Source of the DNA: a virus
Taxonomy: Duplodnaviria; Heunggongvirae; Uroviricota; Caudoviricetes
Virus record (IMG/VR): IMGVR_UViG_2563367158_000002
Reading direction: 5' to 3' (one strand)
Length of the DNA stretch: 35,353 nucleotides
The notes beneath the pieces were generated by a model. That model was not told the DNA's origin. It worked only from the letters and a program-made list of their open reading frames with translations, and searched no databases. This document shows, in pieces, positions 1,622-31,510 of this stretch. Position 1 is the first letter of the stretch. Every line of letters starts with the position of its first letter. The position numbers and the translations under genes are program-made.

Positions 1622-1634
1622 TTCCTGTTTGTAA

Positions 1635-1853: not shown

Positions 1854-1887
1854 CGCGAGCACCTCTTCCGGTTTTGTTGATGGTGCC

Positions 1888-1916
1888 ATTTTAGTTAATT
1901 TATCCTTATAAAACAA
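1888..1916 (-). promoter_or_regulatory. Candidate sigma70 promoter of ogr (-35 TTGTTT, 17-nt spacer, -10 TAAAAT on minus strand)
   Basis: Read by eye between the D stop and ogr start; spacing is consistent with a transcript starting just upstream of the ogr RBS. Confidence 0.45.
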
Positions 1917-1934
1917 ACAGATAAAATAAAAACA

Positions 1935-3098: not shown

Positions 3099-3577
3099 TA
3101 TCCCGCCCCCGTCATACCCGTGAATTTAGTTGCCATACTGCCCGCCTTACCGATGAGCGATTCCGCCTGTTTACCGATATCGCCATAAAGCGCGGCCAGT
3201 GATTCATCTACGCGGGTAAGTGACAGCGTAAAATCAATTTTCCGAGGTGTGCCGTCGGCAAAGAAAATACTCCCTGTTTCACTCACCCTGCTGATGACAT
3301 ACATGCCGTAAATCATGCCGGTGCCATCCAGCAACGGCCACGCCCGGCCTTCCTCTGCCATCAGCCTGAGCGTGGTCATCGTCAGCTTTCCGCCGGTCAG
3401 TTCGGGATAAAGCACACCGGCAAGCGTGATGTTTTCCTCGCCAACGCCGAGAAACTGGTAGGCATCCCGTTTACCGATACGGGAATTTGACGGCCAGCGA
3501 TAATCAGATTCACGCTGCATGGTCTGGTGTGGCAACGTCTGGCGCATAAAAACAAACATACCTAACGCGAGCATCAT
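3098..3577 (-). CDS. U: Tail protein U (159 aa)
   Basis: P2 gpU length and sequence; conserved position between T and D. Confidence 0.93.
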   Translation of the reverse strand: MMLALGMFVFMRQTLPHQTMQRESDYRWPSNSRIGKRDAYQFLGVGEENITLAGVLYPELTGGKLTMTTLRLMAEEGRAWPLLDGTGMIYGMYVISRVSETGSIFFADGTPRKIDFTLSLTRVDESLAALYGDIGKQAESLIGKAGSMATKFTGMTGAG

Positions 3578-3591
3578 TTTTCGTCACCTCC

Positions 3592-6039
3592 TTAACCGTC
3601 ATGCATCATGCTGGCACGGGCGCGCGCACGTTTATCCCGCTCGTATTTTTCGAGCGCATCCTGTAACTGGCGGTCAAGCTGTGTCCCCGGCGCAGTACCG
3701 CCCGTCAGGTTGATGTGATATTCGTTTTTACTCTGGTCCACATAAGAGCGACCAGCCGGTGCCGTGACCGGCTGATAAGCCTGATAGCCTGCATAAGAGC
3801 TGGTCGCCGGAATATAACCGCCGGTGCCATACGTGGCGGCATGAGTCCTTGCGGCGGTCTGGTCAAGTGTGTCTGACTCTTTGTTGATAACACCGAGTTT
3901 TTCCAGTACCCAGTCAATACCGCTGCGCAGTTTGTTGAACGCATTAAGCGGCAGCATCAGCGCGTCAGCCAGTGCCTGCCCGAACATGACGCCCGTGTCA
4001 CGGCAACGGTTCAGGGTGTCCTGGGTGGCTTTAACCGGGGCAATCAGGTTTTTAAACCACTGCCACGCGGCCTGTAACTTTTCACCCAGCCAGTCAAACA
4101 GCGGCTTAAGTGGCGTGAACAATTCCCCCACCGGCGCAAATGCCGCTTTCAGCCCTTCAACCACACCGCCAAAGAATGCGCTGACAGGCTCCCAGTATTT
4201 ACGGATAAGTAACGCTCCGGCGACAATGGCGGCCACCACGGCCACTACCGGCCAGCTAATCGCCCCGATGGCCGTCATAACGGCACTGCCAACCGTCGTG
4301 AAAATTGCCCCCATTGCGCCTGCTGCAGCGATGATGGCATTGATGCCGGTGATAACCGGCCAGGCTACAAGACCAATTGCACCGATGATGCCAGTAAGCG
4401 CCAGTGCGCCACCGGCAATGATGCCGATGGTTGACGCCAGTGATTTGTTTTTCTGGATCCAGCCGTCGAGTTTTAACACATACTTTGTGGCCGTCTGCGT
4501 GAGATTACGCAGTGCGCCTTCCTGCTGGTCAAACAGGTCTGTCCCCACCGCCTCATAAGCGGACTGAAACTCCTTAAAGTCACCTCCGAGATTGTCCTGC
4601 ATGATATTTACCAGCTCTGCAGTTTTCCCGTCTGAGGCTTTAAACGCAGCGGTCAGTTTGTCCAGCTTTCCGGTTGAGGCGGCAGTCATCAGCACGGCGG
4701 CGGCTGAACTTGCCTCCTCCCCGAAAATGGTTTTCATGTATTCAGCCTGCTGGGCAGTACCGAGCCGGTTTTTCTCAAAACTGGCCTGCATTTCTTTCAG
4801 AATGGTAAATACTGGTCGGGTGTTTCCCTTACTGTCTGAGGTTTTCACACCAAGCTCTTTGAGTGCATCCCATGCTTTTCCCGTCGGTGCCTGCAGGCGG
4901 CTTAACACGGCACGGCTTCCCGTCCCCGCCATTGAGCCTGTGATTTTTGCATCATGCAGCGCCCCGACCATTGCGGCGGTTTCTTCAATGCTGACACCGG
5001 CATTTTTTGCCACAGGTGCGGCATAGGTCAGCGCATCGCTCATGCCGTCAAAATCGGCGGCGGTTTTGTTCATCGTCATGGAGAGAACATCCCCGATATG
5101 AGCGACCTTATCGTTTGAAAGCTGAAAGGCAGATTTCATCCCCATCAGCAGGGCGGCGTTTTCTTCCATCGTGCGGCGGTTCGCCAGCGCCATATTCAGT
5201 GTAACCGGCGTTGCCGCCTGAATGGCATCAACATCCCCACCGGCTTTCGCAATGATAATCTGCGCACCGGCTGCATCATCTGCCGAGGCTGCGGTATTGT
5301 CGCCGAGCTGGCGCGCCTGTTTGCGTAATGCGGCCATTTCGGTGGAGTCTTTTGCCACTCCGAGCACAGCCTGTAATTCTGAGTTTTTCTGCGCAAACTC
5401 ATAACCGGGCATCAGCAGCTTAACTCCGGCCATCGTTCCCGCAGCAGCAATCCCCACACCGGCAGCGCCCACTGAGGCCATATTTCCGGCCAGTTCCTTT
5501 CCTGCCTGATAACGCTGTTTGACTGCGTTAAGTTTTGCCTGTTGTGCACTGACACGCGCCAGCGCGTCACGCTGACGGTTAAGCTGTGCGGTGGTTTCAC
5601 TGATACGGTTTTTCAGTCCCTGCTCATCATGTGCAAGATTGCGGGTATTAATTCCCACAACGGCCAGTTCCCGCTGCTGGCGTTTAACGGAATCCGTCAG
5701 GCGGTTATATTTCGCCTGTAAGTCCTCCGCCGCACGCTTTGCGGATTCCAGCACTTTCGCCTGAGCACGGGTCGGTCGTTCGGTATTTTTAAACTGTGTG
5801 GCAAGGGCTTCGGCTTCCTGCCGCGCCTTTTCAAGTGCATGACCAGTCACGGCGAGCTGTGCACTGGTCTTGCGGAACCCCTCAATACGGGATGCGTGAC
5901 CGTTCAGCTCGCGCAGTGATTTTTGTGTTTCCCGGATATCCCCCGACAGCGACTTGCTCGCTGTACGGATGGATTTAAACGGGCGGGATGCCTGGTCAAC
6001 AGCCCTGAGCAATACCTGTAATTTTACATTGTTACTCAT
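3592..6039 (-). CDS. T: Tail tape-measure protein T (815 aa)
   Basis: 815 aa as in P2 gpT; coiled-coil-rich N-terminal region and hydrophobic Gly/Ala-rich central segment typical of tape-measure proteins. Confidence 0.93.
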   Translation of the reverse strand: MSNNVKLQVLLRAVDQASRPFKSIRTASKSLSGDIRETQKSLRELNGHASRIEGFRKTSAQLAVTGHALEKARQEAEALATQFKNTERPTRAQAKVLESAKRAAEDLQAKYNRLTDSVKRQQRELAVVGINTRNLAHDEQGLKNRISETTAQLNRQRDALARVSAQQAKLNAVKQRYQAGKELAGNMASVGAAGVGIAAAGTMAGVKLLMPGYEFAQKNSELQAVLGVAKDSTEMAALRKQARQLGDNTAASADDAAGAQIIIAKAGGDVDAIQAATPVTLNMALANRRTMEENAALLMGMKSAFQLSNDKVAHIGDVLSMTMNKTAADFDGMSDALTYAAPVAKNAGVSIEETAAMVGALHDAKITGSMAGTGSRAVLSRLQAPTGKAWDALKELGVKTSDSKGNTRPVFTILKEMQASFEKNRLGTAQQAEYMKTIFGEEASSAAAVLMTAASTGKLDKLTAAFKASDGKTAELVNIMQDNLGGDFKEFQSAYEAVGTDLFDQQEGALRNLTQTATKYVLKLDGWIQKNKSLASTIGIIAGGALALTGIIGAIGLVAWPVITGINAIIAAAGAMGAIFTTVGSAVMTAIGAISWPVVAVVAAIVAGALLIRKYWEPVSAFFGGVVEGLKAAFAPVGELFTPLKPLFDWLGEKLQAAWQWFKNLIAPVKATQDTLNRCRDTGVMFGQALADALMLPLNAFNKLRSGIDWVLEKLGVINKESDTLDQTAARTHAATYGTGGYIPATSSYAGYQAYQPVTAPAGRSYVDQSKNEYHINLTGGTAPGTQLDRQLQDALEKYERDKRARARASMMHDG

Positions 6040-6459
6040 TCGTGTTTCCGCTTCGCCGGAGCGCCTTTTCGCGCCATGTGATGAGTTCGGTCAGACTCAT
6101 GGGATACAGTTCTGATGGCGGCCAGTGAAATATCACTGCCACATCCGCCATCAGGTCATCGACCGAGAGATTTTTCGGGAACGTTACTGCACCGAGTTCG
6201 GCGACAAAAAACCGACCACCTTACCGGCCAGCGCCACAAGGTCAGGCAGTTCCAGTGCGGCGACTTCCTGCTCGGTCAGCATCGGTGCAGTCATGCGCGG
6301 CAGCACCTTAATCAGTGCATCGACTTCTGAGTTCGCGACCGCAGCCAGACTGACACCGCGCAGCGTCCCGGCATTGGGTTTCATCAGCGTGACCTGTTCG
6401 ATGACCTGCTCACCACGCTTGACCGGATTGTCCAGGGTAATCACATTTTCTTTGTTCAT
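6032..6459 (-). CDS. E+E': E+E' tail assembly chaperone made by programmed -1 frameshift (about 142 aa)
   Basis: Slippery heptamer T TTT TTG on the minus strand (plus-strand CAAAAAA at 6205-6211); the -1 frame stays open for 57 codons (VAELGAVTFPKNL...RRSGNTNE) and stops at 6032-6034, overlapping the T start ATG. Confidence 0.85.
6184..6459 (-). CDS. E: Tail assembly chaperone E (91 aa)
   Basis: 91-aa ORF MNKENVITLDNPVKRGEQ... at the conserved position upstream of T. Confidence 0.9.
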   Translation of the reverse strand: MNKENVITLDNPVKRGEQVIEQVTLMKPNAGTLRGVSLAAVANSEVDALIKVLPRMTAPMLTEQEVAALELPDLVALAGKVVGFLSPNSVQ

Positions 6460-6515
6460 GGTTTTCTCACTTCTGAATCAGGGTTAACCGGTCAGCCTGG
6501 CTGACCGGATGAAAA

Positions 6516-7034
6516 TCACAGGCCGATATTGCGGCGGTGTTGCTCCAGCCGGTCGACGCCGTTCACCTTCTCAATCATGTTGATGGTGTCGATTTCGACC
6601 AGCTCCTTACCGTCCATCGTCAGCCGGAAATAGGTGCAGACCACGGAGATTTTCGACTCGGTATCTTCTCCCTGTTTCCCCTCGCCGGTGTCGATTTCTT
6701 TCTGACGTCCACGCATGACCACTTCGACGGCCACCGTTTCGCCGGTATCGTCACGCTGGTAAGAGCCTGCAAAACGAATCGGCACAGCATCCACACCGGT
6801 TGCGGCGTAAAGCTCCCAGATAACCGAATCCGGGAAGCCACCGAGCGACCACTCCATTGACAGCGCATCGTCATCAAGGCCGAGGTCTACCGGTGCGCTT
6901 CCGTTCATCCCCGCACCGCGATAGTTTTCGAGTTTACGGGTCAGTTTTGGCAGCGTGACGGACTTTGCAACGCCCTGATAGCTGTAGCCGTTCAGAAAGA
7001 CGTTCATTAACTTGAGTTTGCGCGGCATTGCCAT
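6516..7034 (-). CDS. FII: Tail tube protein FII (172 aa)
   Basis: P2 gpFII length and sequence. Confidence 0.93.
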   Translation of the reverse strand: MAMPRKLKLMNVFLNGYSYQGVAKSVTLPKLTRKLENYRGAGMNGSAPVDLGLDDDALSMEWSLGGFPDSVIWELYAATGVDAVPIRFAGSYQRDDTGETVAVEVVMRGRQKEIDTGEGKQGEDTESKISVVCTYFRLTMDGKELVEIDTINMIEKVNGVDRLEQHRRNIGL

Positions 7035-7046
7035 CGGTCAGGCTCC

Positions 7047-8237
7047 TTAATTGCTGTTAACCGAGGTGACCAGATTTGCCAGATATTTATCGGTGATACG
7101 CTGGCGCAGAGTCAGGTTTTCGAGAGGAGGCACCGGGGTATAGTCGTAGTCGATATACAGTTTTCCGGCCTTGAGGGTTTCCGCATCGTTGGATTCTTCG
7201 CTGAACCAGCAGGTCGCATCCACGATATAGCCGTTTGTTTTCAGCTCACGGAATTTGGCATTGATGCCGTCAACGATGTCGCGAATCAGCGTTGCGGTGA
7301 TGGGCTTGTCCACCGCCCACATGTGCGCCTCAGCCATCGTGTCGGCCATCACCTGCGCGGTGCGGGTGTAGTTTTCAAAGAGGAACAGCGGGTCATCAGA
7401 GCAGGTACGGTTACCCCAGAATCGGAAACCGTCGCGGCGAATCAGCGTAGTGACGCCTGACTCGTTAAGCAGGTCAGCATCGGTGCCGGACTCCTGCAAA
7501 TCCCAGAATACAGATGCGCTGATGCCGGTAACACCGTTTACCCCGACGTTGGACAGCGTTTTATGCCAGCCCTGCTCCTGGTCGATTTTAGCGCGCAGAC
7601 CCAGCGCACGGGCGGTGGCATACGCGGTGGCGGTGGTACTGGTGACCGTATCCCATGCGAGGAAATCCGGCCAGATGACCATCAGCTCACGCTGGCTGAA
7701 ATTCTGGCGATAGGCTTTCACCTCGGAAATGGTCTTACAGCCCCATGCGCTGATATATCCGAAAGCGCGCAGCTTCTGACAGACGGATGCCAGTGCAACA
7801 GCCACCTCTTTGGTATCCAGTCCCGGCACACCGAGAATACGCGGTTTAACACCGGTTACCGACTCCGCCGCCAGCAGGGCTTTTAGTCCGGTGTACTGAC
7901 CGTTTTCGTCGGTGGTGCCGATGATATTGGAAACGGTCTGCGCGAGTTTCGTTTCCTCGTCATCACCGGTGCCGTCTTCCACGCGCACGACAACGGTGAC
8001 CGGTTTTGACTGGTCACCGATGGCCTGCAACGATGCCGCCAGCGTGCCTTTTTTACCGGCCTTTGCAATTGCGCTCTGCACATTGGTAATCAGCACCGGT
8101 TTATTGAGGGGGAAGGTTTCCGCATCCGCATCGCTGGCCGTGCAGACCATGCCGACAATGGCAGTGGATACGGTGGAAATGACGCGGGTGCCGTCGTTAA
8201 TCTCCAGCACCTGCACGCCATGATGATAGTCACTCAT
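7047..8237 (-). CDS. FI: Tail sheath protein FI (396 aa)
   Basis: Start set at the internal ATG giving MSDYHHGVQVLEINDGTRVIS... (P2 FI N-terminus, 396 aa) with ggag RBS; the 445-aa ORF in the track is an N-terminal extension. Confidence 0.9.
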   Translation of the reverse strand: MSDYHHGVQVLEINDGTRVISTVSTAIVGMVCTASDADAETFPLNKPVLITNVQSAIAKAGKKGTLAASLQAIGDQSKPVTVVVRVEDGTGDDEETKLAQTVSNIIGTTDENGQYTGLKALLAAESVTGVKPRILGVPGLDTKEVAVALASVCQKLRAFGYISAWGCKTISEVKAYRQNFSQRELMVIWPDFLAWDTVTSTTATAYATARALGLRAKIDQEQGWHKTLSNVGVNGVTGISASVFWDLQESGTDADLLNESGVTTLIRRDGFRFWGNRTCSDDPLFLFENYTRTAQVMADTMAEAHMWAVDKPITATLIRDIVDGINAKFRELKTNGYIVDATCWFSEESNDAETLKAGKLYIDYDYTPVPPLENLTLRQRITDKYLANLVTSVNSN

Positions 8238-8342
8238 CCGTTTAACTCCGTGGTTAATGGGTGAGTGATATTTTCTGTTGTGCAGAGCATGAGACGCTAT
8301 TTGACCTGGCTGGTCAGTGGATGAAACAACAGATAAAGAAAA
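8238..8342 (-). promoter_or_regulatory. Region expected to hold the Ogr-dependent late promoter for FI-FII-E-T-U-D
   Basis: Position only, by analogy with the P2 late operon structure; I could not identify a convincing activator box by eye. Confidence 0.35.
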
Positions 8343-8361
8343 GGCGGGCAATCCGCCCGCC
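8343..8361 (-). terminator. Rho-independent terminator (GGCGGGC-loop-GCCCGCC then TTTTCTTT on minus strand)
   Basis: 7-bp GC stem with 5-nt loop followed by a T-rich run in the minus direction, between the cargo gene and the FI promoter region. Confidence 0.6.
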
Positions 8362-8551
8362 TGTCCTGATTTGTACTCACTCATTTTCCGACTGACTATT
8401 TAGATAGCCGAAACGCTATCAAATCTGACAGTCTGCTTTGAGCGAGAAGCGGAAGTCTCGGTCTTATTATGTTCTGAGACTAGAAGGTATTTCTTAAGGA
8501 TGATTATTCGTTACGCCTACATATAATAGAAACAGAAATTTAAAGTTTAAA

Positions 8552-8617: not shown

Positions 8618-9985
8618 TTATCTTTCTCCAACATCCTCTTCTAAAACATGATCTATCTTATCTACAGGAAGATTATCATACTTAGAAAAATCAAAACCAT
8701 CGGGAAGTTTATTTTTTGCTGCTTTTAATATTCTTATTGAATCGTTACCGTTTCTAGAGCGATTTCGCCAATAACATTGATTGTTTTTGTTTGCTCCTTC
8801 AAGCAGGGTTAACATTTGCTCGCTTGAGTAATTAGCCAAGTCTTTGTCAATAAATCTATCAAAATATATATCGGCTCGTTCGAAATCAGCGCTGTTTATA
8901 AAACAAGCAATTCCAAAATCGCGATACTCTGATTCCAAACCTAATTCGCTGCAAACATTTTTAAAAATTGCCAAATGTTGCTGGTTAAGAAAATTTCCAT
9001 TATCTCCGTATTTTTTGTAATATTTTTCAGATATTCTTTTTGTTACGCGATTAATGTGTTCCTCCGGCGATTCAGATATAAAAAAGGCTATTCCAAAATA
9101 AGATATGTTATCTTTTATAATAGGTTTTATGAGTTCTTTTACTGAATCATCCAAGGCGTTATATATTTCTTTCTCCATGGAAATGAACTCAATTAGTGCC
9201 TTAATTGCATCATGGTTATTGGAAATATTGGAGTAATAAGCAGTTTCTGCTTTAACCGAGTCCACCATGGCTTGCCTGTCTTTTTCAAATATCAGTTTCA
9301 TAGCTCTGATATTTATCTCTCTATTTTCTAATGGCTTAGCTTCTTCAGATCTAAACGAAAACTTCCACAACCCCTTGAATATCTTAACTAATACTTCCTT
9401 GTTTAAAGATTTGAAATATTTAACATCTAAGTATTTTTTAAGCGCGTTATCGGAAGGGAATAGGTCCTTTACCTTTTCTAGATCTGCAACAAATGTGGAA
9501 AGTATTTTTTGAGACATAAATGGCGGCTTGCTTAATATTACTTCTATACTATTCCTAATGTCACTTCTAATCATTTCCTGTGTTGGCTCGAATAACGTAT
9601 CTTCGTCACTTATTACTGGATGGGCAGATAAATGCCTGTGTTTTTGAATAAGTAAAACTTTATGGTTTGAAGCAGTGTCTAATAATTGAGTTCTTTCAAA
9701 AACTCTTTTAATAAGCTCTTTTTCCCATTTAGGAGAGTAAGGATCATCGTTTTGTAGTGCTTCAATTTCTAATAATATCTTTTCCGCAACAGCATCGTTA
9801 TGAACATCTCGCAGTTCTTGGAGCTTAAAAATAATATCACATACAACTACTGACCATAGCATCACGGTAGCAGAACGGTAACAACCATTAGCATAGCTCT
9901 TATAAACCTCTTCAAAATATTTTCTAGTTCTTCTATCATAAATTTTACTCTTCTGAGATTCTAATGAGAATATTCTAACGTCCAT
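8618..9985 (-). CDS. Cargo protein at the P2 Z/fun slot, 455 aa, with HEPN-like Rx4H motif (candidate abortive-infection or exclusion protein)
   Basis: Long ORF in an AT-rich island between G and FI; ATG with GGAG RBS; motif R117-H-L-S-A-H122 (plus strand 9620-9637) near the end of a roughly 130-aa helical N-terminal region; no Walker A motif. Whether it is a homolog of P2 Fun(Z) cannot be decided without alignment. Confidence 0.8.
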
Positions 9986-10282
9986 AATTTCTCCATGAAA
10001 AAATATTTAACTCAAGTAATTGAATATGAATCATGTAGTCATAAATACTTCAAAATTATATTTTTAGCCCACTTAAAATTCATACAAAACTTCTTTAATA
10101 AACTGATTCAGGTCTCATGCATTATGCTTTTAACAAACTATCCTAACCTTCATAGTATAAATCTTGATGTTCAATTTTACAATACGCCAAGTTTCCGTAA
10201 ATCAATGAATGCGTCGGATTTTACAATAATTTAAAAGAGATGTTGAATAGTATCCATGAAGTGTAAGGTTAATATACCCAAA

Positions 10283-10306
10283 ACGTCCGCCTCTGGCACA
10301 GAGCGG
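10283..10306 (-). terminator. Terminator-like hairpin downstream of G (gtccgcctctg / cagagcggac, then GTTTTGGG on minus strand)
   Basis: GC-rich stem with one bulge followed by a U-rich tract in the minus direction, about 65 nt after the G stop. Confidence 0.5.
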
Positions 10307-10369
10307 ACTGTCAAATTAGGCTTTACTCTGTGCCATAGATATGTAAGCTCCTACCAGAGCTCATACAAC

Positions 10370-10897
10370 TTATTGCGTCATTTCCGGCCATTCAGGATTT
10401 GTAGGATCCACACGACTGACCAGAACGCTGTAGCGTTCCCAAGCCTCCAGCCGTGTGCGCTCCTCCTCTGTTGCCATGTTCAGCCTGACAGCACGCTCTA
10501 GCGGCAAAATCACGGATTCAGCATCTGCAAGAAGTCTGGCTTTCCGGTTTTCTGCCTGCAGTTGCAATTCCTCTGCCGTATAAATTCGTTTGATCACTGT
10601 GCCATCCTTAAACATCCAGTTCCCTGAAATGTCCGCCCGTCGGTTAGCAGTAATATCCGCCACTTCAACAACACTTAATCCATCCGGTCTGATAGCTGTC
10701 ACATCCTTTTCCACATAGCGGATGATATTATCTTTGTCGTACGCTATTTTTATCGTGTCATCAGCAAAATACTTTTGTTCTTCGTACCAGTTCTTACCAT
10801 CTTCTGAAAAAAACCAGACAACATCAAAGTTCTTTGTCAATTGATATTGTTCAACCGTTTTTGGATTACCCGCCGTAATATTTTTTAAATGCTGCAT
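10370..10897 (-). CDS. G: Tail fiber assembly protein G (175 aa)
   Basis: P2 gpG length; MQHLKNI...[14 protein letters not shown] and C-terminal [11 protein letters not shown] recognised. Confidence 0.9.
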
Positions 10898-10900: not shown

Positions 10901-13150
10901 TTATACCTGCGCCACGTTATACCATGTCCCGTTAATGTATTTCTGCACCGGTCTGTAATATACGCCACCAATGTTATCGGCAGAGTTTGAGCCGGTATCC
11001 TGAACAATAATGCCGGTATATACGCAACCTGACGGAGCCTGATGCGTCCATGTAGTACCATTATTTGCTGGTTTATATGTAGATGCACCGCCCAGTCGCA
11101 TGTCTCTCACATAACGTGAATCTGACTCAGCTTTGGTGTATGCACCAACATCTCCCGCTGAGGGTTTATGAGCAGTTGTATATAGTTGCGCCCATCCAGA
11201 CCAGTTAGCATCTGTGGTATCTCGTCGGGAGCGAATATATGCCGGAGCATGAGCACCGCTGGTTCCACTCCAGCCAATAAGTAACTCACCCTCTCCTACT
11301 GCGGTTACGCCAGTGAGATGAAGCACATTACCATAGGCTGTTGGGTAGCCATTGTTGTATGCCTCATACATCTGAATACCTGGTGTACCCTTTGAGCTCC
11401 CACCTAATGCAGTAACACGGTTTCTGGATACCAGTGTATTAATATTTATATCGGCAGAACCATCAAATCTGACACCATTAATATTTCTTGCGTTCGCTAA
11501 CTTCGTTGCTGTTGCAGCATTTCCTGAAAGGCTGGAAATAAATGGATGTGAGCAGTAATAACCGCGCCCATTTTTAAAATCCAGAATAGCCTGTGCGTTC
11601 GTGCTTTCTGTAGCGGGATTAGTTGCCCCCCACTTATATGTCGTTTGACCGACGACATAATCCTCTGTCGGAACAATAACCGTTAGCCCTTCCTCTGCAA
11701 GAATTTGCACAGGGAAAGCTCTGGCTTCAACATAAAAAACACTACATACATCATCATCTTTCAGGCTTGTAACAATGGAATGGATTGAACGCTCATTGGT
11801 CTGATACGTCCAGAAATAACCTGCCGCATATGAACCACGATCAGTCCATCCTCCGGGCATAACCATGCCATTAAACTCGCAGTTATTCATTACATAATCG
11901 CCGTTATAACAACCAGTGGAAATAACGACGCGGGATGCCATTTCTCCTGAAAGGCTGGCAGCACGGCGAAAGATAACGGGATACCACTTCCCGGCAACGA
12001 CATTTGCAGGGGCTGCAAACGAATACTTTCGCATTCCCTTTTTCTTATCCACTTCACCTTTGCTGTAAACATTAATGTTACTCAGGAAGCGTTCTTTATC
12101 AGGAATATCCGCACCGTTCTGATCTTTCTGAAGACGTTTTTCAGCATTGTCATTGGCAGACTTCACCGCTTTTGGTGTTGCGGCCAGCGTTTCAGAATCA
12201 CTGTTGGTGGCGCTACTTAGCTGGACAAGACCTTTTCGAGCTGTGGTGGCATCCTGTGCAGTGTATTTCCCGTTAGCAAGGTCATACGCTGTCTTAACCG
12301 CCTTTGGCGTTGCGGCCAGCGTTTCAGAATCGCTGTTGGTGGCACTACTGAGCTGAACAAGGCCTTTTCGCGCGGTGGTGGCGTCCTGCGCGGTGTATTT
12401 GCCATTAGCAAGGTCATATGCTGTCTTAACTGCCTTCGGCGTTGCTGCGAGCGTCTCAGATTCGCTGTTGATGGCACTACTTAGCTGAACAAGACCTTTT
12501 CGCCCCGTGCTGGCGTCCTGAGCGGTATATTTTCCGTTAGCAAGGTCATATGCGGCCTTTACCGCTTTCGGCGTTGCGGCCAGTGTTTCAGACGTGCTGT
12601 TGGTCGCACTGCTTAACTGAGTAAAACCTTTTGCGGTCAGCGAGGCGTCAGGGTGACGTCGTGACTGTTCGTGCTCTGCAATTTTGTCATCAACGTAATC
12701 CTGCGTCGCCATCACCGTTGTGGTGTCAATGGTCAGCTCCACTGAGGCCACACTGCTGACGATGATGACCATGCGGCAGGTCTGCGAACGCCCTGAGCCT
12801 TCGGCAAGAGCTGGCTTATAACTTTCGGCCATGTTCGCCACGGCAATTAACGTTCCCGCATCATCGTACAGGCCAAGCTCACGCATCCAGAAACCGCCCA
12901 CCTCCGGCGGAATAACCAGCTCTGCGATAATATAATTACTGTTTCGTTTGTCCTGACTGATTTTGTTCAGCGCATGTCGCCAGACTTCGTGGATAAGCCC
13001 GGTCTGTCCGGCATCCGGGACAGGCAATTTACCACCGCCATCCCCGACGGCCATCGTGGTAATGTTGACCTTCCGCCCTCCCGGTGCGGTTGCCGCTGCC
13101 AGCTTTGCTGCACCGGCAGTGGTGATAACGGTTTTGAATTTTGTGCTCAT
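10901..13150 (-). CDS. H: Tail fiber protein H (749 aa) with internal tandem repeats
   Basis: N-terminus MSTKFKTVITTAGAAKLAAAT... as in P2 H; about 80 aa longer than P2 H (669 aa as I recall) because of four 44-aa fiber repeats; Gly/Thr/Ser-rich receptor-binding C-terminus. Confidence 0.9.
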   Translation of the reverse strand: MSTKFKTVITTAGAAKLAAATAPGGRKVNITTMAVGDGGGKLPVPDAGQTGLIHEVWRHALNKISQDKRNSNYIIAELVIPPEVGGFWMRELGLYDDAGTLIAVANMAESYKPALAEGSGRSQTCRMVIIVSSVASVELTIDTTTVMATQDYVDDKIAEHEQSRRHPDASLTAKGFTQLSSATNSTSETLAATPKAVKAAYDLANGKYTAQDASTGRKGLVQLSSAINSESETLAATPKAVKTAYDLANGKYTAQDATTARKGLVQLSSATNSDSETLAATPKAVKTAYDLANGKYTAQDATTARKGLVQLSSATNSDSETLAATPKAVKSANDNAEKRLQKDQNGADIPDKERFLSNINVYSKGEVDKKKGMRKYSFAAPANVVAGKWYPVIFRRAASLSGEMASRVVISTGCYNGDYVMNNCEFNGMVMPGGWTDRGSYAAGYFWTYQTNERSIHSIVTSLKDDDVCSVFYVEARAFPVQILAEEGLTVIVPTEDYVVGQTTYKWGATNPATESTNAQAILDFKNGRGYYCSHPFISSLSGNAATATKLANARNINGVRFDGSADININTLVSRNRVTALGGSSKGTPGIQMYEAYNNGYPTAYGNVLHLTGVTAVGEGELLIGWSGTSGAHAPAYIRSRRDTTDANWSGWAQLYTTAHKPSAGDVGAYTKAESDSRYVRDMRLGGASTYKPANNGTTWTHQAPSGCVYTGIIVQDTGSNSADNIGGVYYRPVQKYINGTWYNVAQV
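12152..12646. repeat. About four tandem copies of a 132-bp (44-codon) repeat inside H
   Basis: Nucleotide repeats visible by eye; protein repeats ...RKGLVQLSSA(T/I)NS(D/E)SETLAATPKAVK(T/A)AYDLANGKYTAQDA... Confidence 0.85.
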
Positions 13151-13160
13151 TATTCCTCAC

Positions 13161-13691
13161 TTATCCGGGGTAAACCGTAATTACATCGCCGTCGTAAGCC
13201 ACACCACCGGCGAACAGGTAGCCCGGAATGTCCCGGGTAATGTTCAGGCCAATAAGGTGGCGGCTTGCAGGTTTGGCATCAGCAATCAGCCGTTCCATTT
13301 CCTGATACATTGCCTCTGTGATACCGCTTTCCAGTACACCAATATCAAGCCGGAAGGTGCCGGGCGGGTCACTGGTTTCCCACCACTCCGTCACGTTGAT
13401 GAGATAGCCGAGCGGCTCCACCACACGCCGGATTGCACCTATAGTGCCCTTATGACAGTGGATGAAATAGGCATCGCGGATAACGGCGCGTTTTGTCGCT
13501 TCCGGCCACTTTTCATCCCACCTGTCGACCGAAAACGCCCACGCCAGCCACGGCAGCAGATTTGCCGGACAGGTATCCGGGTTCCACAGCTCACGAATAC
13601 TGACCGGCGTTTTTTCAATTTCCGCACAGGCTTTTGCAGCAGCAACCTCAAGCGGTGATGAGCCGGTCGGCAGCAGGCGCGAATCACTCAT
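13161..13691 (-). CDS. I: Baseplate assembly protein I (176 aa)
   Basis: P2 gpI length and sequence. Confidence 0.93.
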   Translation of the reverse strand: MSDSRLLPTGSSPLEVAAAKACAEIEKTPVSIRELWNPDTCPANLLPWLAWAFSVDRWDEKWPEATKRAVIRDAYFIHCHKGTIGAIRRVVEPLGYLINVTEWWETSDPPGTFRLDIGVLESGITEAMYQEMERLIADAKPASRHLIGLNITRDIPGYLFAGGVAYDGDVITVYPG

Positions 13692-14592
13692 CCGAGCCTC
13701 CGGTCACGACGCTGTATTCGGTACAGAAAGACGCCTGCGTACTGTTGAGCACGATGTCGGCCAGTGGTGCAGCCAGTTCGACACGCTGCACACCTTCCAC
13801 ATGCAAAGCGGCATAAATGGCAGACAGACGGATGTCACGCCCCAGCCGGTGCTGTGCCGTGATATACGCTTCCAGTTTTTTCACGGCGGCAGCGCGGATG
13901 GGTTCGCTTTCGGGACCAGGGTAAAGGTAAAGCGTGGCGTTTATCTGGTATTCAACAATGGCGGCAGACTGCACGGTCACGCGGTCGGCCACCGGCCTGA
14001 CGTCCTCGCCATTAAGGGCGTTACGCACCACGGCCAGCAGATCTTCGGATGCGACGCCGTTATTTTCACGTGACAGCACAGAGATGGTGACGCAGGCCGG
14101 AGACGGACTGGTGACAGAGATATCCGCGACACGCCCGTCGGCACTGCGACCATGATACTGATAGGCTCCCACCGACCCGGCGACGCTTAAGCCTTCAAAC
14201 GCCTGCTGAATACGCAGCCGGTAATCGGTGTCAGACTCCATCACTGCCGGTGTCGGCGGGATAGTCGAATCATCTGCCGGGGTGATAATCAGGCGTGTGG
14301 TGTTGTAATTGGCACCAATCACATCAAGGTCATTACCGGCTGCACAGGCCAGCATCACCGCCCGTGCGGCCTCATTCACACGCTGACGCCAGATAAGCTC
14401 ACGATAAGCATTTTCCTCCAGCAGTTTGACGAGAGGTTCGGATTCCAGCGTCAGGGTACGGGCGACCGCCTCCTGCTGGTCTTCCGGGTAAAGGGAAATC
14501 AGTGTCGCCTTGCGTTCGGCAAGAATGGTTTCAAAGTCCAGCTCCTCGACCACATCCGGTGCGGGTAGCTGGTTCAGGTCGATAATCGGCAT
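13684..14592 (-). CDS. J: Baseplate assembly protein J (302 aa)
   Basis: P2 gpJ length and sequence. Confidence 0.93.
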   Translation of the reverse strand: MPIIDLNQLPAPDVVEELDFETILAERKATLISLYPEDQQEAVARTLTLESEPLVKLLEENAYRELIWRQRVNEAARAVMLACAAGNDLDVIGANYNTTRLIITPADDSTIPPTPAVMESDTDYRLRIQQAFEGLSVAGSVGAYQYHGRSADGRVADISVTSPSPACVTISVLSRENNGVASEDLLAVVRNALNGEDVRPVADRVTVQSAAIVEYQINATLYLYPGPESEPIRAAAVKKLEAYITAQHRLGRDIRLSAIYAALHVEGVQRVELAAPLADIVLNSTQASFCTEYSVVTGGSDE

Positions 14593-14596
14593 GGTT

Positions 14597-14944
14597 TCAA
14601 CTCACAGGGATGGTTAACGAAAGTGGCTGGCCGGTGTCGTTGTGCTGGCCGGTTAACGTGACCGTCATTCGCCCGTCAAAACTGCGCTCAGTGGTGACGG
14701 ATGACAGGGTGACGCGGGGTTCCCATTTCAGCACCGCCATGTAACAGGCGACCTTAATCTGCAACTCAAGCGCCGGGGTCTGCGGCTGGTCAATCATTGA
14801 CGCCAGCAACGAGCCGTAATCACGACGCATCACCCGTGAGCCGACCGGTGTGCGCAGGATATCGCCGATACTCTGGCTGATATGCTCAAGGTCAGTGACA
14901 GTCAGGCTATCACTGCGATTCATTCCGAGATAACGCGCTGTCAT
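14597..14944 (-). CDS. W: Baseplate assembly protein W (115 aa)
   Basis: P2 gpW length and sequence. Confidence 0.93.
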   Translation of the reverse strand: MTARYLGMNRSDSLTVTDLEHISQSIGDILRTPVGSRVMRRDYGSLLASMIDQPQTPALELQIKVACYMAVLKWEPRVTLSSVTTERSFDGRMTVTLTGQHNDTGQPLSLTIPVS

Positions 14945-15570
14945 AGAGGACTCCCGGTTGTGCCGCCGCTGTCGCCGGGGTGTTTATGGGTATGCAGTAC
15001 CTTACCGTTTGATGAGAGTTCACCGCCGGTGTGTTCAATGTTGCCGTGCATCGTCCCGCCCTTCTGCACTTCCAGCGTGCCGGTAATCAGCCTGTTGGTG
15101 CAGACGACCTCCGGTGTGTCCAGGGTGATGCGGGTTGACGCTTTCACCATGACCACCGGCACCGTGGCAGTAACAGAATCAGAAGCCGTCACGCTGGCCG
15201 TTTTAATTCCGCTTACCGTGAGTGCACTGGTTTCGGGGTCATACTCAATCACCGCCCCGTCAGGGAAACGGATATGCAGGGCATCCGCCGACGCAGACGG
15301 CGCGGGGTTATCGCCGGAATAAATCCCCGGCAGAACGAACGCCGTGTCGAGTTCACCGCCCACGGACAGAATCAGCACCTGTTCCCCCACGGAAGGTGCC
15401 CACCATGTGCGCGAACGACCGGCGCGCTGGGTCAGCCACTGCAGCCAGTCGGTGCACATGCCGCCGGTCTGCACACGGCAGCGACCGGCATTAAGGTCGG
15501 TTTCGACGATAATGCCAGTGCGAATCATATTGCGTATAAAGCGAAGAATTTCATTGTATTGTGCATTCAT
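14941..15570 (-). CDS. V: Baseplate spike protein V (about 209 aa)
   Basis: Start at the internal ATG giving MNAQYNEILRFIRNMI...; the 235-aa ORF in the track begins at an upstream TTG; exact start uncertain. Confidence 0.88.
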   Translation of the reverse strand: MNAQYNEILRFIRNMIRTGIIVETDLNAGRCRVQTGGMCTDWLQWLTQRAGRSRTWWAPSVGEQVLILSVGGELDTAFVLPGIYSGDNPAPSASADALHIRFPDGAVIEYDPETSALTVSGIKTASVTASDSVTATVPVVMVKASTRITLDTPEVVCTNRLITGTLEVQKGGTMHGNIEHTGGELSSNGKVLHTHKHPGDSGGTTGSPL

Positions 15571-15656
15571 TCGATAATAATGATTCTGTACAATCTCGAA
15601 GTAAATCACACCACGATTTCTGGTGCACAGAACAACAAGGGACAACAAAATCCATT
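15571..15656. promoter_or_regulatory. Divergent control region: expected late promoter for V-W-J-I-H-G (minus) and promoter of the antisense cargo gene (plus)
   Basis: Position only; contains the dyad CACCA-N7-TGGTG (15609-15625) and a TACAAT-like hexamer (15588-15593). Confidence 0.35.
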
Positions 15657-16730
15657 ATGAGTACTTACTTTTTCTCGTCAGAAACAATGAAAGAATTGTT
15701 CAAAGATTATCTGGTCTTTTTGAACACGCTGACTCCCAGCACAAACTTTGAATCAAACAGAAACAAAATAATTGCTCAAGCAATAAACTTCATTTCCGAA
15801 AACCCTGAAGATTGGGACAAAAAATCCCAGTACAACATTGCTATGATTGGCGACACCTTTAAAAGTTTCTTAAGAGAAAAGGGGGAAGATAACAACAGCA
15901 TCAACCTTATATTCACTTGCTTTTTTAGATTTATCATTGAACCAAGCATTCTCTCTCCGGAAATAGAGTCTCACTTTTCACCACTAAGAACCATCAAGGA
16001 TTTTGCTCTGTATAACTATAATGAATTCGATGAGCGGAGCAGAGCACAGATAGACTTTTCTCTTAGAGAACTGCCATTAGCAATGGTTAAAGAAGTTTTA
16101 AGCTCCAGCAATGTTGACACATATAAAAAATACATTGATAGTTTAAACGAAGGGCGTCAATTTTTCGAAAAGTGCGACTCCTTCTTAAAGGAGCAACATG
16201 CCAAAATAGAGTCAATTAAAGAGTCATTAAAAGGGTATGAGGTCGCATTTAATTTTGTTGGATTGTTTGATGGCTTTAATTCACTTGGCAAAAAGAAAGA
16301 AAGTGAAATCATGCTATCAAGAATAATTCTTATCATCTTGGCTATAATCATTCCCTCCCCACTGATATACTATGGAATGCATAAATTACCAACTCTCGAA
16401 ACGACAAATGCTGCCACATATTTTATGTCAGCACTACCTTTTGCATCAGTTACATTGATTTTCATGTATTACTTTAGAGTTGTACTGATAAATCATATAT
16501 CGTTACGAACTCAGATTATGCAAATAGAACTCAGAAAGAGCCTTTGTCAGTTCATTCAGAGTTATAGCGACTATTCCTCAGAGATAAGGAAAAACAATCC
16601 GGAAGCGCTTTCAAAATTTGAAGACGTAGTATTTTCAAACATCATGCTATCCGATGATAAGATACCATCTACATTTGATGGTATTGAACAAATAGCATCG
16701 TTAATCAACGCATTGAAAAATGGCAAGTAA
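15657..16730 (+). CDS. Cargo protein at the P2 orf30 slot, 357 aa, membrane-anchored, unknown function
   Basis: AT-rich ORF on the strand opposite to the late operons; start at the ATG (15657) downstream of the V start, since the track's 389-aa version begins at a GTG overlapping V; two hydrophobic segments (IMLSRIILIILAIIIPSPLIYY and ATYFMSALPFASVTLIFMYYF) after a roughly 230-aa soluble N-terminal region; own terminator. Confidence 0.8.
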   Translation: MSTYFFSSETMKELFKDYLVFLNTLTPSTNFESNRNKIIAQAINFISENPEDWDKKSQYNIAMIGDTFKSFLREKGEDNNSINLIFTCFFRFIIEPSILSPEIESHFSPLRTIKDFALYNYNEFDERSRAQIDFSLRELPLAMVKEVLSSSNVDTYKKYIDSLNEGRQFFEKCDSFLKEQHAKIESIKESLKGYEVAFNFVGLFDGFNSLGKKKESEIMLSRIILIILAIIIPSPLIYYGMHKLPTLETTNAATYFMSALPFASVTLIFMYYFRVVLINHISLRTQIMQIELRKSLCQFIQSYSDYSSEIRKNNPEALSKFEDVVFSNIMLSDDKIPSTFDGIEQIASLINALKNGK

Positions 16731-16764: not shown

Positions 16765-16833
16765 AACGTAAAGATTCAAAATAAATCATACTAAATCAAA
16801 TAATTTCATTCTTATATTCTCAGATCAATAAAG

Positions 16834-17286
16834 CTAGCGATTCAGGTGAGCCAGAATAATCTCTTCAATCATCTGCACATCCTCACCGGTAAAGCCGAGC
16901 AGAGGACGCGCCGGATAATCAATTTTCTTACCGTCTTTCCGGGTTTCTTCCGACAGACCAAACTGATGCACACTGGCGATTTTCGGTGACTTCCCGCCGT
17001 AAAATTCCATTGCTGCCTGTTCCGGGCTGGCGCGGATATGCAAAAAACGACTGGTGATAAGTTTCGCAAACATTTTTCGCTTAACGCGACCGGTCTTTTT
17101 TCTGGCGCTCTGCTGCTGGCGTGGCGCGTAGGGTGTGCCGTCCGGGGCTTTCTGTGCCATCACCCGACGCTGCTGACTCTGCCGCAGACGTTTCGCCAGT
17201 TCGGCACTCAGTCGCCGACGCCCTGACGGTGACAGCGACTCAATCAGTCCGGTCAGCCGGTCTTCAAAACGCTTAAACTCATTCAT
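16834..17286 (-). CDS. S: Tail completion protein S (150 aa)
   Basis: P2 gpS length and sequence. Confidence 0.93.
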   Translation of the reverse strand: MNEFKRFEDRLTGLIESLSPSGRRRLSAELAKRLRQSQQRRVMAQKAPDGTPYAPRQQQSARKKTGRVKRKMFAKLITSRFLHIRASPEQAAMEFYGGKSPKIASVHQFGLSEETRKDGKKIDYPARPLLGFTGEDVQMIEEIILAHLNR

Positions 17287-17746
17287 CCCACTTGCTCACC
17301 AGTTCGCCATTGATATAAAGCTCCATCGGGCGGGTGACCGGCTCCGGCGGCGGGGGTTCCGGGATATTCTTCACATGCAGTGCGCCGTCGACCTCACTGA
17401 CCAGCGTGCGCTCGGTCAGCATCAGGCTGATGCTGATATCAAAGCTGCTGTCATTGTTGATGTCTGCATAAAACGTGAAGCCCTTTTTCTGGCCTGCGTC
17501 GGTGGTCATAATGTCGGGCTGATTTTCCCGCAGCCACGCCAGCACCGGCACAATGAGCAGGTCAAAATCACCGGTAAAGTCGGTCACAATGACATTGAGC
17601 GTGTAACGCTTTTCGAATGACAGCGACGTCGCCAGTGTGGAGGCAATACTCCCGTTATCCACGAATATCCGCAGCATATCGGGGTTAGTTTTCAGCACCG
17701 TGACGGCATCAGTCAGCGCCCTGCGCAGGCTGTCGGGTTTGAGCAT
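17279..17746 (-). CDS. R: Tail completion protein R (155 aa)
   Basis: P2 gpR length and sequence. Confidence 0.93.
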   Translation of the reverse strand: MLKPDSLRRALTDAVTVLKTNPDMLRIFVDNGSIASTLATSLSFEKRYTLNVIVTDFTGDFDLLIVPVLAWLRENQPDIMTTDAGQKKGFTFYADINNDSSFDISISLMLTERTLVSEVDGALHVKNIPEPPPPEPVTRPMELYINGELVSKWDE

Positions 17747-17999
17747 CGTTTTCGTCCTGACAGTATTTAATCATTTTTACCTGGCTGGCACAGCGCGCCA
17801 GCGCGTTCTCAAGCTGCCGGATATCGGCACTTAAATCACCGTTCGTCTCCGGGTCGCTGCCCGGCATCGGGCAAAGGCTCACTTTCGGGCAGGCGTTGGG
17901 GACAATCACTGGCGTCGGTGCAGGCCGGACGCTGGTGCAACCGGCGCACAGCATCAGGCAGGTCAGCACCGTACCAGCGGCGGAAATCTTCGTTTTCAT
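17709..17999 (-). CDS. lysC: LysC, Rz1-like outer-membrane lipoprotein spanin (96 aa) nested in lysB
   Basis: MKTKISAAGTVLTCLMLCAGC lipoprotein signal and lipobox; embedded in a different frame inside lysB. Confidence 0.8.
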   Translation of the reverse strand: MKTKISAAGTVLTCLMLCAGCTSVRPAPTPVIVPNACPKVSLCPMPGSDPETNGDLSADIRQLENALARCASQVKMIKYCQDENDAQTRQPAQGAD

Positions 18000-18279
18000 T
18001 GAGTAATCTCGTGATGGTTTTCTCGCGCTGAGCTTCACGCTTCGCGGCGTTCTCCAGTTCCTGACGCAGTGCCACCTGCGCCAGCTCGTTTTTGTCTGCC
18101 CTGGTGAGCGCAACATGAAGCTGATTTTTCAGCATGGTGATGGTCGTCTGCTGCCCGCTGGCGACGTTGCTCGCCCTGTCCAGTGAGGTGCGCAGGCTGG
18201 CGTTTTCATGCTTCGCCAGAAAAAGACCTACCACCGCCAGTGATAACAACACAACCAGCACAATCATCAGCTTTGACAT
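17836..18279 (-). CDS. lysB: LysB, Rz-like inner-membrane spanin (147 aa)
   Basis: MSKLMIVLVVLLSLAVVGLFLA signal-anchor then coiled-coil; the 342-aa ORF in the track is an upstream extension across lysA and K. Confidence 0.85.
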   Translation of the reverse strand: MSKLMIVLVVLLSLAVVGLFLAKHENASLRTSLDRASNVASGQQTTITMLKNQLHVALTRADKNELAQVALRQELENAAKREAQREKTITRLLNENEDFRRWYGADLPDAVRRLHQRPACTDASDCPQRLPESEPLPDAGQRPGDER

Positions 18280-18692
18280 GGTTCCCGCCCCCCAAAACGC
18301 TGACGGCAGGCCGTACGTATCAGCCGGAAAAACAGTGACGCCACGAGATAAATCAGCGCGGTAAAAATCCATCCGGCGGCGACCAGCGAGATAAACGTCG
18401 CCACCATCACCACCAGAGCCGCTGCCCGTCTGCGCCACGGCACCGGCTGCAAAAACAGCGACGTGACAATCTTCACGGCCAGCGATTCCGGCGGAAGCTC
18501 CCGCCCGTAGCGTTCCAGTACATACTCTGTGGCATACACGCCGACACCACCGGCAACCACACAGATAACCGTCGCCAGAATCGCCCAGGCAGCGACAAAA
18601 CTGACGGCCACGCTCTGCGGGTAAATCAGGGACAGTGCCAGCATCAGCGCCAGCGACACGTTCAGCATCAGTGAAAGGGATAATTTCTTCAT
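18267..18692 (-). CDS. lysA: LysA lysis-timing membrane protein (141 aa)
   Basis: Multi-pass hydrophobic 141-aa protein at the P2 lysA position. Confidence 0.88.
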   Translation of the reverse strand: MKKLSLSLMLNVSLALMLALSLIYPQSVAVSFVAAWAILATVICVVAGGVGVYATEYVLERYGRELPPESLAVKIVTSLFLQPVPWRRRAAALVVMVATFISLVAAGWIFTALIYLVASLFFRLIRTACRQRFGGREPCQS

Positions 18693-18706
18693 GGTGTTTA
18701 CTCCGT

Positions 18707-19204
18707 TTAAGCCGGTACGCCGCCAGCGGTACGCCAGACGGTGACCAGTTTTTCCAGTGAATGCTCACGCTGACCGTAACCGGCACCCGGCAGGGACGCC
18801 CAGATATTGCGACAGCGTGAAATGGCGCGCTCAATGCGTCCCGCCCGGATGTCATCCAGTGCACCGCGTTCGCGGATCAACTGAATGGCGAGTCTGTCCT
18901 GTGACAACGGACTGAAATCCGGCAGGGCAAGCTGTTTGCGGTAATGCGGCCAGAACAGGTAAAGCTGCTGATAGCGACCGGAGGCCGTGGATTTTTCACC
19001 GCGACGGTTAAACACCTTCGCCGGTCGGCCATGCGCGAACGGGTGGTCACTGTAGTCGGTGAAAATTTCCGGCTTTCCGTCCAGTCCGGTGACTATCACG
19101 TCATAGCCCCGGTTTTTCGTCAGCGGATGATTCGCCGTCCCTTCGGACGCGGCCAGCATGTCGAGAAAGGCGGCGATATTCTGATGCGTGTTAATTACCG
19201 GCAT
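18707..19204 (-). CDS. K: Endolysin K (165 aa)
   Basis: P2 gpK length; lysozyme-like EGT motif near the N-terminus (LAASEGT). Confidence 0.92.
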   Translation of the reverse strand: MPVINTHQNIAAFLDMLAASEGTANHPLTKNRGYDVIVTGLDGKPEIFTDYSDHPFAHGRPAKVFNRRGEKSTASGRYQQLYLFWPHYRKQLALPDFSPLSQDRLAIQLIRERGALDDIRAGRIERAISRCRNIWASLPGAGYGQREHSLEKLVTVWRTAGGVPA

Positions 19205-19485
19205 TACGGTTTCCCCCTGCCCTTAAAGCGGCGCTGAATGGCAATCTCAATCACCTGATAACCGGCGATACCCAGCATGGAGCCGATGCCGCACACCGCA
19301 GGCAGTGACAGGTCAGGAAACTGCACCAGAACAACACCGGCAACCATCGAGACAAAACCACCGAGCAACATGCGCCCGATAAACAGACGCGGGGTGATGG
19401 GTTCACCACCGGCAAGCACCTTGCCGACAACAATCAGCACCCCAATCATGAAAAGCGACAGGACGCTTTTTTCTTCTGCTGTCAT
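19204..19485 (-). CDS. Y: Holin Y (93 aa)
   Basis: 93 aa, hydrophobic segments and charged C-terminus, at the P2 Y position. Confidence 0.9.
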   Translation of the reverse strand: MTAEEKSVLSLFMIGVLIVVGKVLAGGEPITPRLFIGRMLLGGFVSMVAGVVLVQFPDLSLPAVCGIGSMLGIAGYQVIEIAIQRRFKGRGKP

Positions 19486-19488
19486 GCG

Positions 19489-19692
19489 TTACTCCCACAG
19501 ATTGACAGTTTCAGCCACGGGCGCGGTCTGAACGTCGGGCAGTTCGACGGCGGTGCCATGTGGCAGCACCGCCCCCAGTTCAGCCAGTCCCGGATTTGCG
19601 GCGAGCACAGCCTCGACCACGCCCTCAGTGCGCCCGTAATACCGGACACAAATGGCGTCGAGCGTGTCGCCCTGTAGCGCAAAGGTCTTCAT
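19489..19692 (-). CDS. X: Tail protein X (67 aa)
   Basis: Start at the ATG giving MKTFALQGDTLDAICVRYYG... (67 aa); the 90-aa ORF in the track starts at an upstream GTG. Confidence 0.88.
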   Translation of the reverse strand: MKTFALQGDTLDAICVRYYGRTEGVVEAVLAANPGLAELGAVLPHGTAVELPDVQTAPVAETVNLWE

Positions 19693-20201
19693 CAGATTTG
19701 ACTCACGATGCAGCGCGGCTTGTCCTGGATGCGCGCCACTGCCCAGCGCATATCCCGCCACAGCTCATCAATGGTGCTGTCAATGCTGTCGGCCTTCTTG
19801 TCGCCTTTCGCACTGGCATCCACGCCGCGATAACGCTCATAAAGCGATGCGGTCGCCATCGCACACACGGCGCGCTCGTAGTAAAAAACTTTGATGCTTT
19901 CACCGTCGATGTCGTCCGCCGGGACGTCCGCCAGACGCGTAAAACCGGCAGCAATTTTCTGTTCGCGGTACTCGTACAGCTCCGCATTCGTCTCCGCCAT
20001 GCCTGACTTGATGGCCTCACGCAGACGGGCGGGGGCGACGGTCTGCTCAAGGCGCATACGTTCCCGGACGCGCTTCGGGTCGATATCGGGAAAAAAGAAC
20101 GTGTTTTTAATCACCGGCTCGTCGCCTGCCGGTTGCGGGATGACCACCGTACCCTCACCGGACACGGGAGCCTCCTTTCGCGGAATAATCAGCGTCATCA
20201 T
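19692..20201 (-). CDS. L: Head completion protein L (169 aa)
   Basis: Start at MMTLIIPRKEAP... giving the P2 L length; the track ORF is extended upstream. Confidence 0.9.
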   Translation of the reverse strand: MMTLIIPRKEAPVSGEGTVVIPQPAGDEPVIKNTFFFPDIDPKRVRERMRLEQTVAPARLREAIKSGMAETNAELYEYREQKIAAGFTRLADVPADDIDGESIKVFYYERAVCAMATASLYERYRGVDASAKGDKKADSIDSTIDELWRDMRWAVARIQDKPRCIVSQI

Positions 20202-20300
20202 GACTACCTCTGAAAAGTCGGGCGGTGGACGCCGGTGCAGTGTCAGGTGATTCACCCTCACTGACCGGCGTGCCGCCCTGGCGCGGGGCGCATTCGGTTG

Positions 20301-21044
20301 TTAACTGGCTTTCTTTTTCGGGCGTCCACGTTTTGCCGGTGTCGCGCTCCGGGTCTTACGCGGGGCGCAGGTGGCAGCTTTTGGCTGTGGCTCCGGCTTC
20401 GGTTTCAGTTCCCGCTCCAGTCGTTCAATCTCTTTTTTGACGCCTGCCTGACAGTCGAGCTGTGTCGCACGTTGCAGGTGCGCCAGCGCACCGGCGGCAT
20501 CACCAGCGTCACGCAGAAACAGACCGGTGATTTTGTGCAGCTTTGCGCGCACTTCATCAGGCATGTCAGCCGTGGCGGTCAGTTCGAGGGTCTCCGTCAG
20601 CAGGCGGGTATCCACAGACTCACCGGCAGCGTGAGCACGCATGGCCGCGAGCGCCACCTCCTCGGTGAACATGTACGGCGGGGTGCGGCGGTGTTTACCC
20701 GGCATGGTCAGACCGTACTTCAGGGCATAACGGGCAATCTCCAGCGCACCGGCAATATCGCCGGTATCCAGACGCCACAGCATGACCGTCATCAGAATGT
20801 CATCCTGTGCACCTTTGCCCTGCTCCAGCACGCCGTTCACCCACGGCAACCAGAACGGCAGCAGTTCGCGTTTTTTCGCGGCCTTAAGCTCTTTTGAATA
20901 AATCGCTTTCAGTGTGCGCTGGTCTGCGGCCAGCTTGACCAGCATCTGCTCATAGACAGTTGCATGTCGCAGCGGGGCGGCTTCCCGCTGCGCGGTCATC
21001 GCTGCCGAGACCCGCATCATGTGGCGCTGTGCGGGACTCGTCAT
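20301..21044 (-). CDS. M: Terminase small subunit M (247 aa)
   Basis: P2 gpM length and sequence. Confidence 0.93.
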   Translation of the reverse strand: MTSPAQRHMMRVSAAMTAQREAAPLRHATVYEQMLVKLAADQRTLKAIYSKELKAAKKRELLPFWLPWVNGVLEQGKGAQDDILMTVMLWRLDTGDIAGALEIARYALKYGLTMPGKHRRTPPYMFTEEVALAAMRAHAAGESVDTRLLTETLELTATADMPDEVRAKLHKITGLFLRDAGDAAGALAHLQRATQLDCQAGVKKEIERLERELKPKPEPQPKAATCAPRKTRSATPAKRGRPKKKAS

Positions 21045-21047
21045 CGG

Positions 21048-22121: not shown

Positions 22122-22179
22122 AGTTTTTCCTGAAATTAAGGGTTAATCGTGAAGGTTTTCCCGGACTGACTGACGCCGG

Positions 22180-26014: not shown

Positions 26015-26019
26015 ACATC

Positions 26020-31508: not shown

Positions 31509-31510
31509 TA

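Follow-up and report, generated by a model that had tools for sequence, protein, structure and literature searches.

The tail fiber gene H of a P2-like prophage carries a tandem array of protein repeats that is longer than that of phage P2 itself. This raises the question of whether the array was expanded recently and still changes its length, or whether it was inherited in its present form. The window, i.e., the whole stretch of 35,353 nucleotides that was analyzed, was therefore compared with P2, with related prophages and with other named fibers. The results argue strongly for inheritance: H is very probably an ordinary P2-like prophage tail fiber gene, its four-unit array is an old inherited allele and the commonest state, and the two units of P2 are another state.

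The prophage and its gene H

The window is a P2-like (Peduovirus) prophage that lies beside yegQ in the E. coli chromosome. The left flank (1-1500) was 100% identical to E. coli yegQ/trhP, and this flank (Peptidase_U32) was found with 100% identity in several E. coli genomes; we take it to be the locus of the cryptic P2 remnant of E. coli K-12. The prophage ends (1-1507 and about 34708-35353) mapped to the attP core of P2 (P2 positions 24382 and 24355). BLAST comparison with phage P2 (NC_001895) revealed colinear blocks with 96-98% nucleotide identity at 1507-8456, 12423-15534, 16828-26201, 28517-33029 and 33343-34708. The gaps between them are the classic variable slots of P2, i.e., Z/fun, orf30, tin/old, the immunity region, and the distal half of H together with G.

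The contents of the other slots were also recorded. In the Z/fun slot, between G and FI, a 455-aa protein is encoded (8618-9985, minus strand), which had no Pfam domain and matched PD-T7-3 of PADLOC over its full length (E = 3e-168). The prophage thus carries a known defense gene in a known P2 hotspot. The orf30 slot between S and V contains a 389-aa ORF (15561-16730, plus strand), the true start of which is probably a later ATG. It had neither a Pfam nor a PADLOC match, its sole match was phrog_9373 (function unknown), and its C-terminal half looks hydrophobic by eye; it is a candidate for an uncharacterized cargo or defense gene in a P2 hotspot. It overlaps the V ORF only through the mechanically assigned starts: the latter (14941-15648, minus strand) has a TTG start and 235 aa, versus 211 aa for V of P2, and the real start of V is probably an internal ATG near 15576. 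The tin/old slot (26201-28517) had no homology to P2 and contains two genes (26327-27025 and 27124-27897, both minus strand) for proteins of 232 and 257 aa. They had no Pfam or PADLOC matches and matched phrog_23429/16957 and phrog_3403, all of unknown function, and are possibly an undescribed two-gene cargo in the old/tin hotspot. Lastly, homology to P2 was broken at 33029-33343, across the C/cox immunity region, and thus the immunity type of the prophage probably differs from that of P2.

Gene H (10901-13150, minus strand) encodes a P2-type tail fiber protein of 749 aa. It is preceded by V, W, J and I and followed by G (10370-10897, minus strand), which encodes a tail fiber assembly chaperone of 175 aa (PF02413, Caudo_TAP, E = 2.2e-32). 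The gene order V-W-J-I-H-G is colinear with P2, with 96-97% nucleotide identity on both sides. The first 151 aa of H (12698-13150, minus strand) form the N-terminal tail-collar or baseplate-docking domain (PF12571, E = 1.3e-58), a region with 98-100% nucleotide identity to four-unit relatives. The four repeats (PF03406) follow, and the distal part (aa 331-749; 10904-12160, minus strand) consists of a linker, a mosaic shaft and a predicted receptor-binding region. The PF12571 N-terminus, the position in the late operon and the PF02413 chaperone next to it identify H as a P2-type gpH, and nothing was found that contradicts this identification. By homology, H is predicted to be a trimeric virion fiber that binds a host receptor. 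A simple scan of 9900-10500 found no terminator after G. ORFs that cross the repeats on the opposite strand or in an alternative frame (12217-12477, and 12963-13658 of the plus strand) had no support as genes and were rejected; they were taken to result from the repeat and from the G+C-rich coding sequence.

The first-pass annotation had proposed that H is roughly 80 aa longer than H of P2, and this holds true (749 versus 669 aa). H of P2 has two units, at aa 170 and 214, and so the two extra units account for +88 aa, while the distal part of H is 8 aa shorter. An equal number of units in P2 would have spoken against the observation, and it stands with four units versus two. P2 gpH and gpG share with H and G the gene position, the N-terminal domain and the repeat family. 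The first 251 aa of H were 94% identical to P2 gpH, and the last residues (YINGTWYNVAQV) are the same. In contrast, the 419 aa after the repeats were unrelated to P2 apart from 45% identity over the last 75 aa. At the nucleotide level, the homology (96.7%) runs from V (15534) into unit 2 of H and ends at 12423; from there on only repeat-level similarity was seen.

The four repeat units of H

The array was detected by two approaches. Tandem Repeats Finder placed it at 12161-12632, with a period of 132, 3.6 copies, 85% matches, 0 indels and a score of 636, and a repeat search yielded three in-register copies of 226 nt with a spacing of 132 nt over 12143-12632. The position that had been assigned to it before, 12152-12646, was thus correct within about 10 bp. 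The Pfam scan confirmed the claim of about four fiber repeats of 132 bp or 44 aa, because PF03406 (Phage_fiber_2) matched H in four stretches with E = 2.3e-80 and 264.4 bits versus a cut-off of 22, which is far beyond chance. The in-frame units span 12116-12643 and start at aa 170, 214, 258 and 302, and thus the spacing is exactly 44 aa.

All four units are encoded on the minus strand. Unit 1 (aa 170-213; 12512-12643) was 92-98% identical, at the nucleotide level, to its counterpart in other H genes with four units. Unit 2 (aa 214-257; 12380-12511; STGRKGLVQLSSAINSESE...) is an unusual variant, which had at most 87% identity to any unit of 78 related H genes; units 1, 3 and 4 had matches of 98-100%. 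Unit 3 (aa 258-301; 12248-12379) was 100% identical to unit 3 of phage P22H4. Unit 4 (aa 302-345; 12116-12247) retains a conserved 29-aa core, and its final 15 aa depart from the repeat pattern and enter the linker NAEKRLQKDQNGADIP.

The units had been described as near-identical, and this was overstated. Pairwise nucleotide identities were 61-86% over the full 132 nt; with the comparison restricted to the 87-nt cores, units 3 and 4 reached the maximum of 88.5%. For the unit pairs, the longest exact match in register was 14-23 nt, i.e., 23 nt at most. Most of the differences are synonymous: the 29 core codons of units 3 and 4 encode the same 29 aa and differ at 10 synonymous and 0 non-synonymous positions, and units 2 and 3 have 4 non-synonymous and 14 synonymous codon differences. 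In a comparison with 37 further H genes that have four units, units 1, 3 and 4 had 91-100% identity (mostly 95-100%) to the units at the same position. The units are thus orthologous by position, and the units within H are much less alike than same-position units of relatives.

The fold of the repeats was modeled with AlphaFold2 (single-sequence, monomer, aa 151-378 of H), and the mean pLDDT was 42 and the pTM 0.21, values too low for an informative model. According to a modeling paper, the Phage_fiber_2 family had no good structural template (PMC8078820).

Unit number and distal modules among related fibers

For the comparison with relatives, 80 IMG/VR loci were fetched with the N-terminal domain alone as query, and therefore the sample has no repeat-driven bias. 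It contained 75 complete H genes, the N-termini of which were at least 98% identical. Units were counted with an HMM built from the four units of the window, because a stricter regular expression had under-counted variant units. One unit was found in 5 genes, two in 25, three in 2, four in 35 and five in 8, and the 749-aa, four-unit architecture of H was present in 8 of the 75. The best 120 protein-database matches to the N-terminus plus repeats had four (97), five (19) or six units (4). In species-representative genomes of other Enterobacterales, 22 complete H-like genes were found, with one (7), two (8), three (6) or four units (1); the spacing was always 44 aa, and the first unit was always at aa 169 or 170. 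The copy number is thus variable across related prophages, as had been suggested, and it varies in whole 44-aa steps from one to six units. The array can be called expanded in relation to P2, but among relatives four is the modal number and P2 is a short variant. Four units are the commonest number among close relatives, and the feature is real and ordinary. A literature search on the Pfam family and on the repeats of P2 gpH retrieved no paper that describes copy-number variation of the repeat.

The same array is present in named phages. Peduovirus P22H4 (LR595869) has four units and a fiber of 748 aa; H was 88% identical to it overall and G 93.7%. Its units 3 and 4 had 99-100% nucleotide identity to those of H, whereas its unit 2 had 85%. 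P2DC1 also has four units. Escherichia phage 9W (OM475431) probably has four units as well, with an ungapped match of 1643 bp at 97.6% that covers the N-terminal half of H and the whole array. Both P22H4 and 9W differ from H in that they have another sequence in place of one internal distal segment (about aa 546-660).

Part of H was matched in 1675 of 5426 complete E. coli genomes, and 64-66 of these 5426 had a match over at least 80% of H or H+G. The best 25 genome matches were full length with 96.7-97.7% identity, and 24 of them had no length change (2781 bp for H+G). A separate observation was made for one E. coli genome, NZ_OZ546922.1 (420712-424700), in which the match to H+G spans 3989 bp versus 2781 bp and an extra hypothetical protein and two tail fiber assembly genes are annotated; this points to inserted or duplicated sequence in the H-G region.

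The distal part of H has a different set of relatives. It was 80% identical to P22H4 and 9W. Its first ~234 aa were 57-78% identical to side tail fibers of lambdoid and other coliphages (Stf-type; mEp332, 2H10, also vB_EcoS_HdSG1), which differ from H in their N-terminal attachment domains, tail type and distal tips. The last ~210 aa were 61.5% identical to the variable part of P1 S' (Sv'). The C-terminal tip is homologous to that of the Mu tail fiber S/S' (PDB 5yvq, 8ju3, 9ki1), with a match to chain 8ju3. Mu S has a single Phage_fiber_2 unit plus the linker NGADIP, and unit 4 of H with its linker aligned to residues 99-172 of Mu S; the linker of H is present there too, whereas the N-terminus of Mu S is different. 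In the Mu cryo-EM paper the model of the fiber is restricted to its N-terminus, and the text does not say whether the repeat is resolved (PMC11915804).

It had been noticed that the C-terminal part of H and G look like an exchanged host-range module. The comparison with P2 bears out the exchange, because the homology ends inside unit 2 and G was only 73.7% identical to P2 gpG, a homologous chaperone, versus 99% for I and J. In genes with four units, the sequence that directly follows unit 4 was either about 98% or about 66% identical to that of the window, and thus a module boundary lies just past the linker. Modular exchange of the distal parts of P2-type fibers has been textbook knowledge since the early 1990s, and the horizontal exchange of tail fiber modules was reportedly described by Haggard-Ljungquist et al. 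in 1992 and by Sandmeier in 1994. It is restated in PMC9594776. On the basis of these comparisons, distal H and G are a classic case of such exchange, and the distal module may affect the host range. Mu and P1 switch their distal parts via an invertible segment and an invertase, whereas H has a single fixed distal part. A switch of the Mu G or P1 C segment type was rejected for H because flanking inverted repeats are missing; the only inverted pair has 20 nt with 80% complementarity, which is at chance level. The locus has one copy each of H and G, and the neighboring gene is PD-T7-3 and not an invertase.

Unit number and distal region were then viewed together. In 15 of 17 distal-region clusters the copy number was uniform, and all nine members of the cluster that includes H have four units. 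Two clusters contained genes with a shared distal region and different unit numbers (four versus five, and one versus two). This near-fixed number per cluster would be expected if the shaft length were tuned to the depth of the receptor, so that selection acts on unit number and module jointly, beyond mere linkage, and it fits that different modules are found on shafts of one, two, four or five units. However, recent common descent of each allele predicts the same pattern. In addition, at least 7 different distal modules follow the same four-unit array (90-97% identical), which argues that shaft and module are freely combinable. The near-fixed number could thus reflect either shared ancestry or co-adaptation of shaft and module, which these data do not separate, and we regard co-selection as rather improbable. 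If it were true, the reach of the fiber would be adjusted to how deep the receptor lies beneath O-antigen or capsule, and this would account for the single fixed number in nearly every module class.

Age and dynamics of the array

The divergence of the units, with mostly synonymous differences, and their same-position orthology across relatives indicate that the array is old and was inherited as a block of four units, and that it was not expanded recently in the lineage of the window. The four-unit array is very probably an old allele that is kept under purifying selection on the protein. Whole units may be gained, lost or homogenized over evolutionary time by in-register unequal recombination between units, which is also the probable route of changes in unit number. 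The uniformity of 15 of the 17 clusters indicates that such events are rare on the sampled timescale.

It had been proposed that the repeat number can change by slippage or recombination. For relatives this seems to be correct: units 2 and 3 were 100% identical over 132 nt in one relative (L006) and 98.5% identical in another (L023), which are signs of recent duplication or conversion. For the gene in the window it is unlikely, because the low nucleotide identity between its units makes slippage or homologous unequal crossing-over improbable. The strongest form of the proposal would be a slippage-prone, hypermutable locus, which has expanded recently in this lineage and frequently switches the fiber length. 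The differences in copy number among relatives and the few relatives with identical adjacent units would fit to such a locus. However, units with 61-86% identity and runs of 23 nt at most are a poor substrate for slippage or for RecA-dependent recombination, and neither the predominance of synonymous differences nor the positional orthology across many prophages nor the constant length of H+G in 24 of the 25 best E. coli genome matches is in accord with frequent change. Features of a hypervariable (contingency) locus were not found in H, i.e., there are no long perfect repeats, and near-identical alleles did not differ in copy number, with one length of H+G (2781 bp) in 24 of the 25 best genome matches and four units in all nine members of the cluster of H. 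A hypermutable locus is therefore very unlikely. Short-read assembly can resolve 132-bp tandem repeats wrongly, but extra units by such an artefact are effectively refuted, because the four units are distinguishable at many positions, which makes collapse or expansion unlikely, and because independent records agree, i.e., the 8 IMG/VR contigs with the 749-aa architecture, the complete genomes without length change, and P22H4 and P2DC1.

The inherited four-unit array can be fitted into a simple picture of the fiber. The N-terminal domain of H would dock on the baseplate, the proximal shaft would be formed by the four 44-aa Phage_fiber_2 repeats as a trimer, and the distal mosaic region would bind the receptor and would depend for its folding on chaperone G, which is inherited with it. 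The trimeric shaft presumably becomes longer by a constant increment with each unit, and thus it is reasonable to expect that the repeat number alters the fiber length. The conserved units and the following linker may double as crossover points for swaps of distal modules between phages.

As a discovery the array carries little weight. Features of this kind are known, with a curated Pfam entry for the repeat family, and the copy number is the commonest one; dozens of complete E. coli genomes carry the allele, as do sequenced phages. For the engineering of P2/P4 particles it is of use that natural H shafts tolerate one to six units, and that the junction past the last unit (…AVK-x-NAEKRLQKDQNGADIP…), to which many different distal modules are joined, offers a natural site for fusions.
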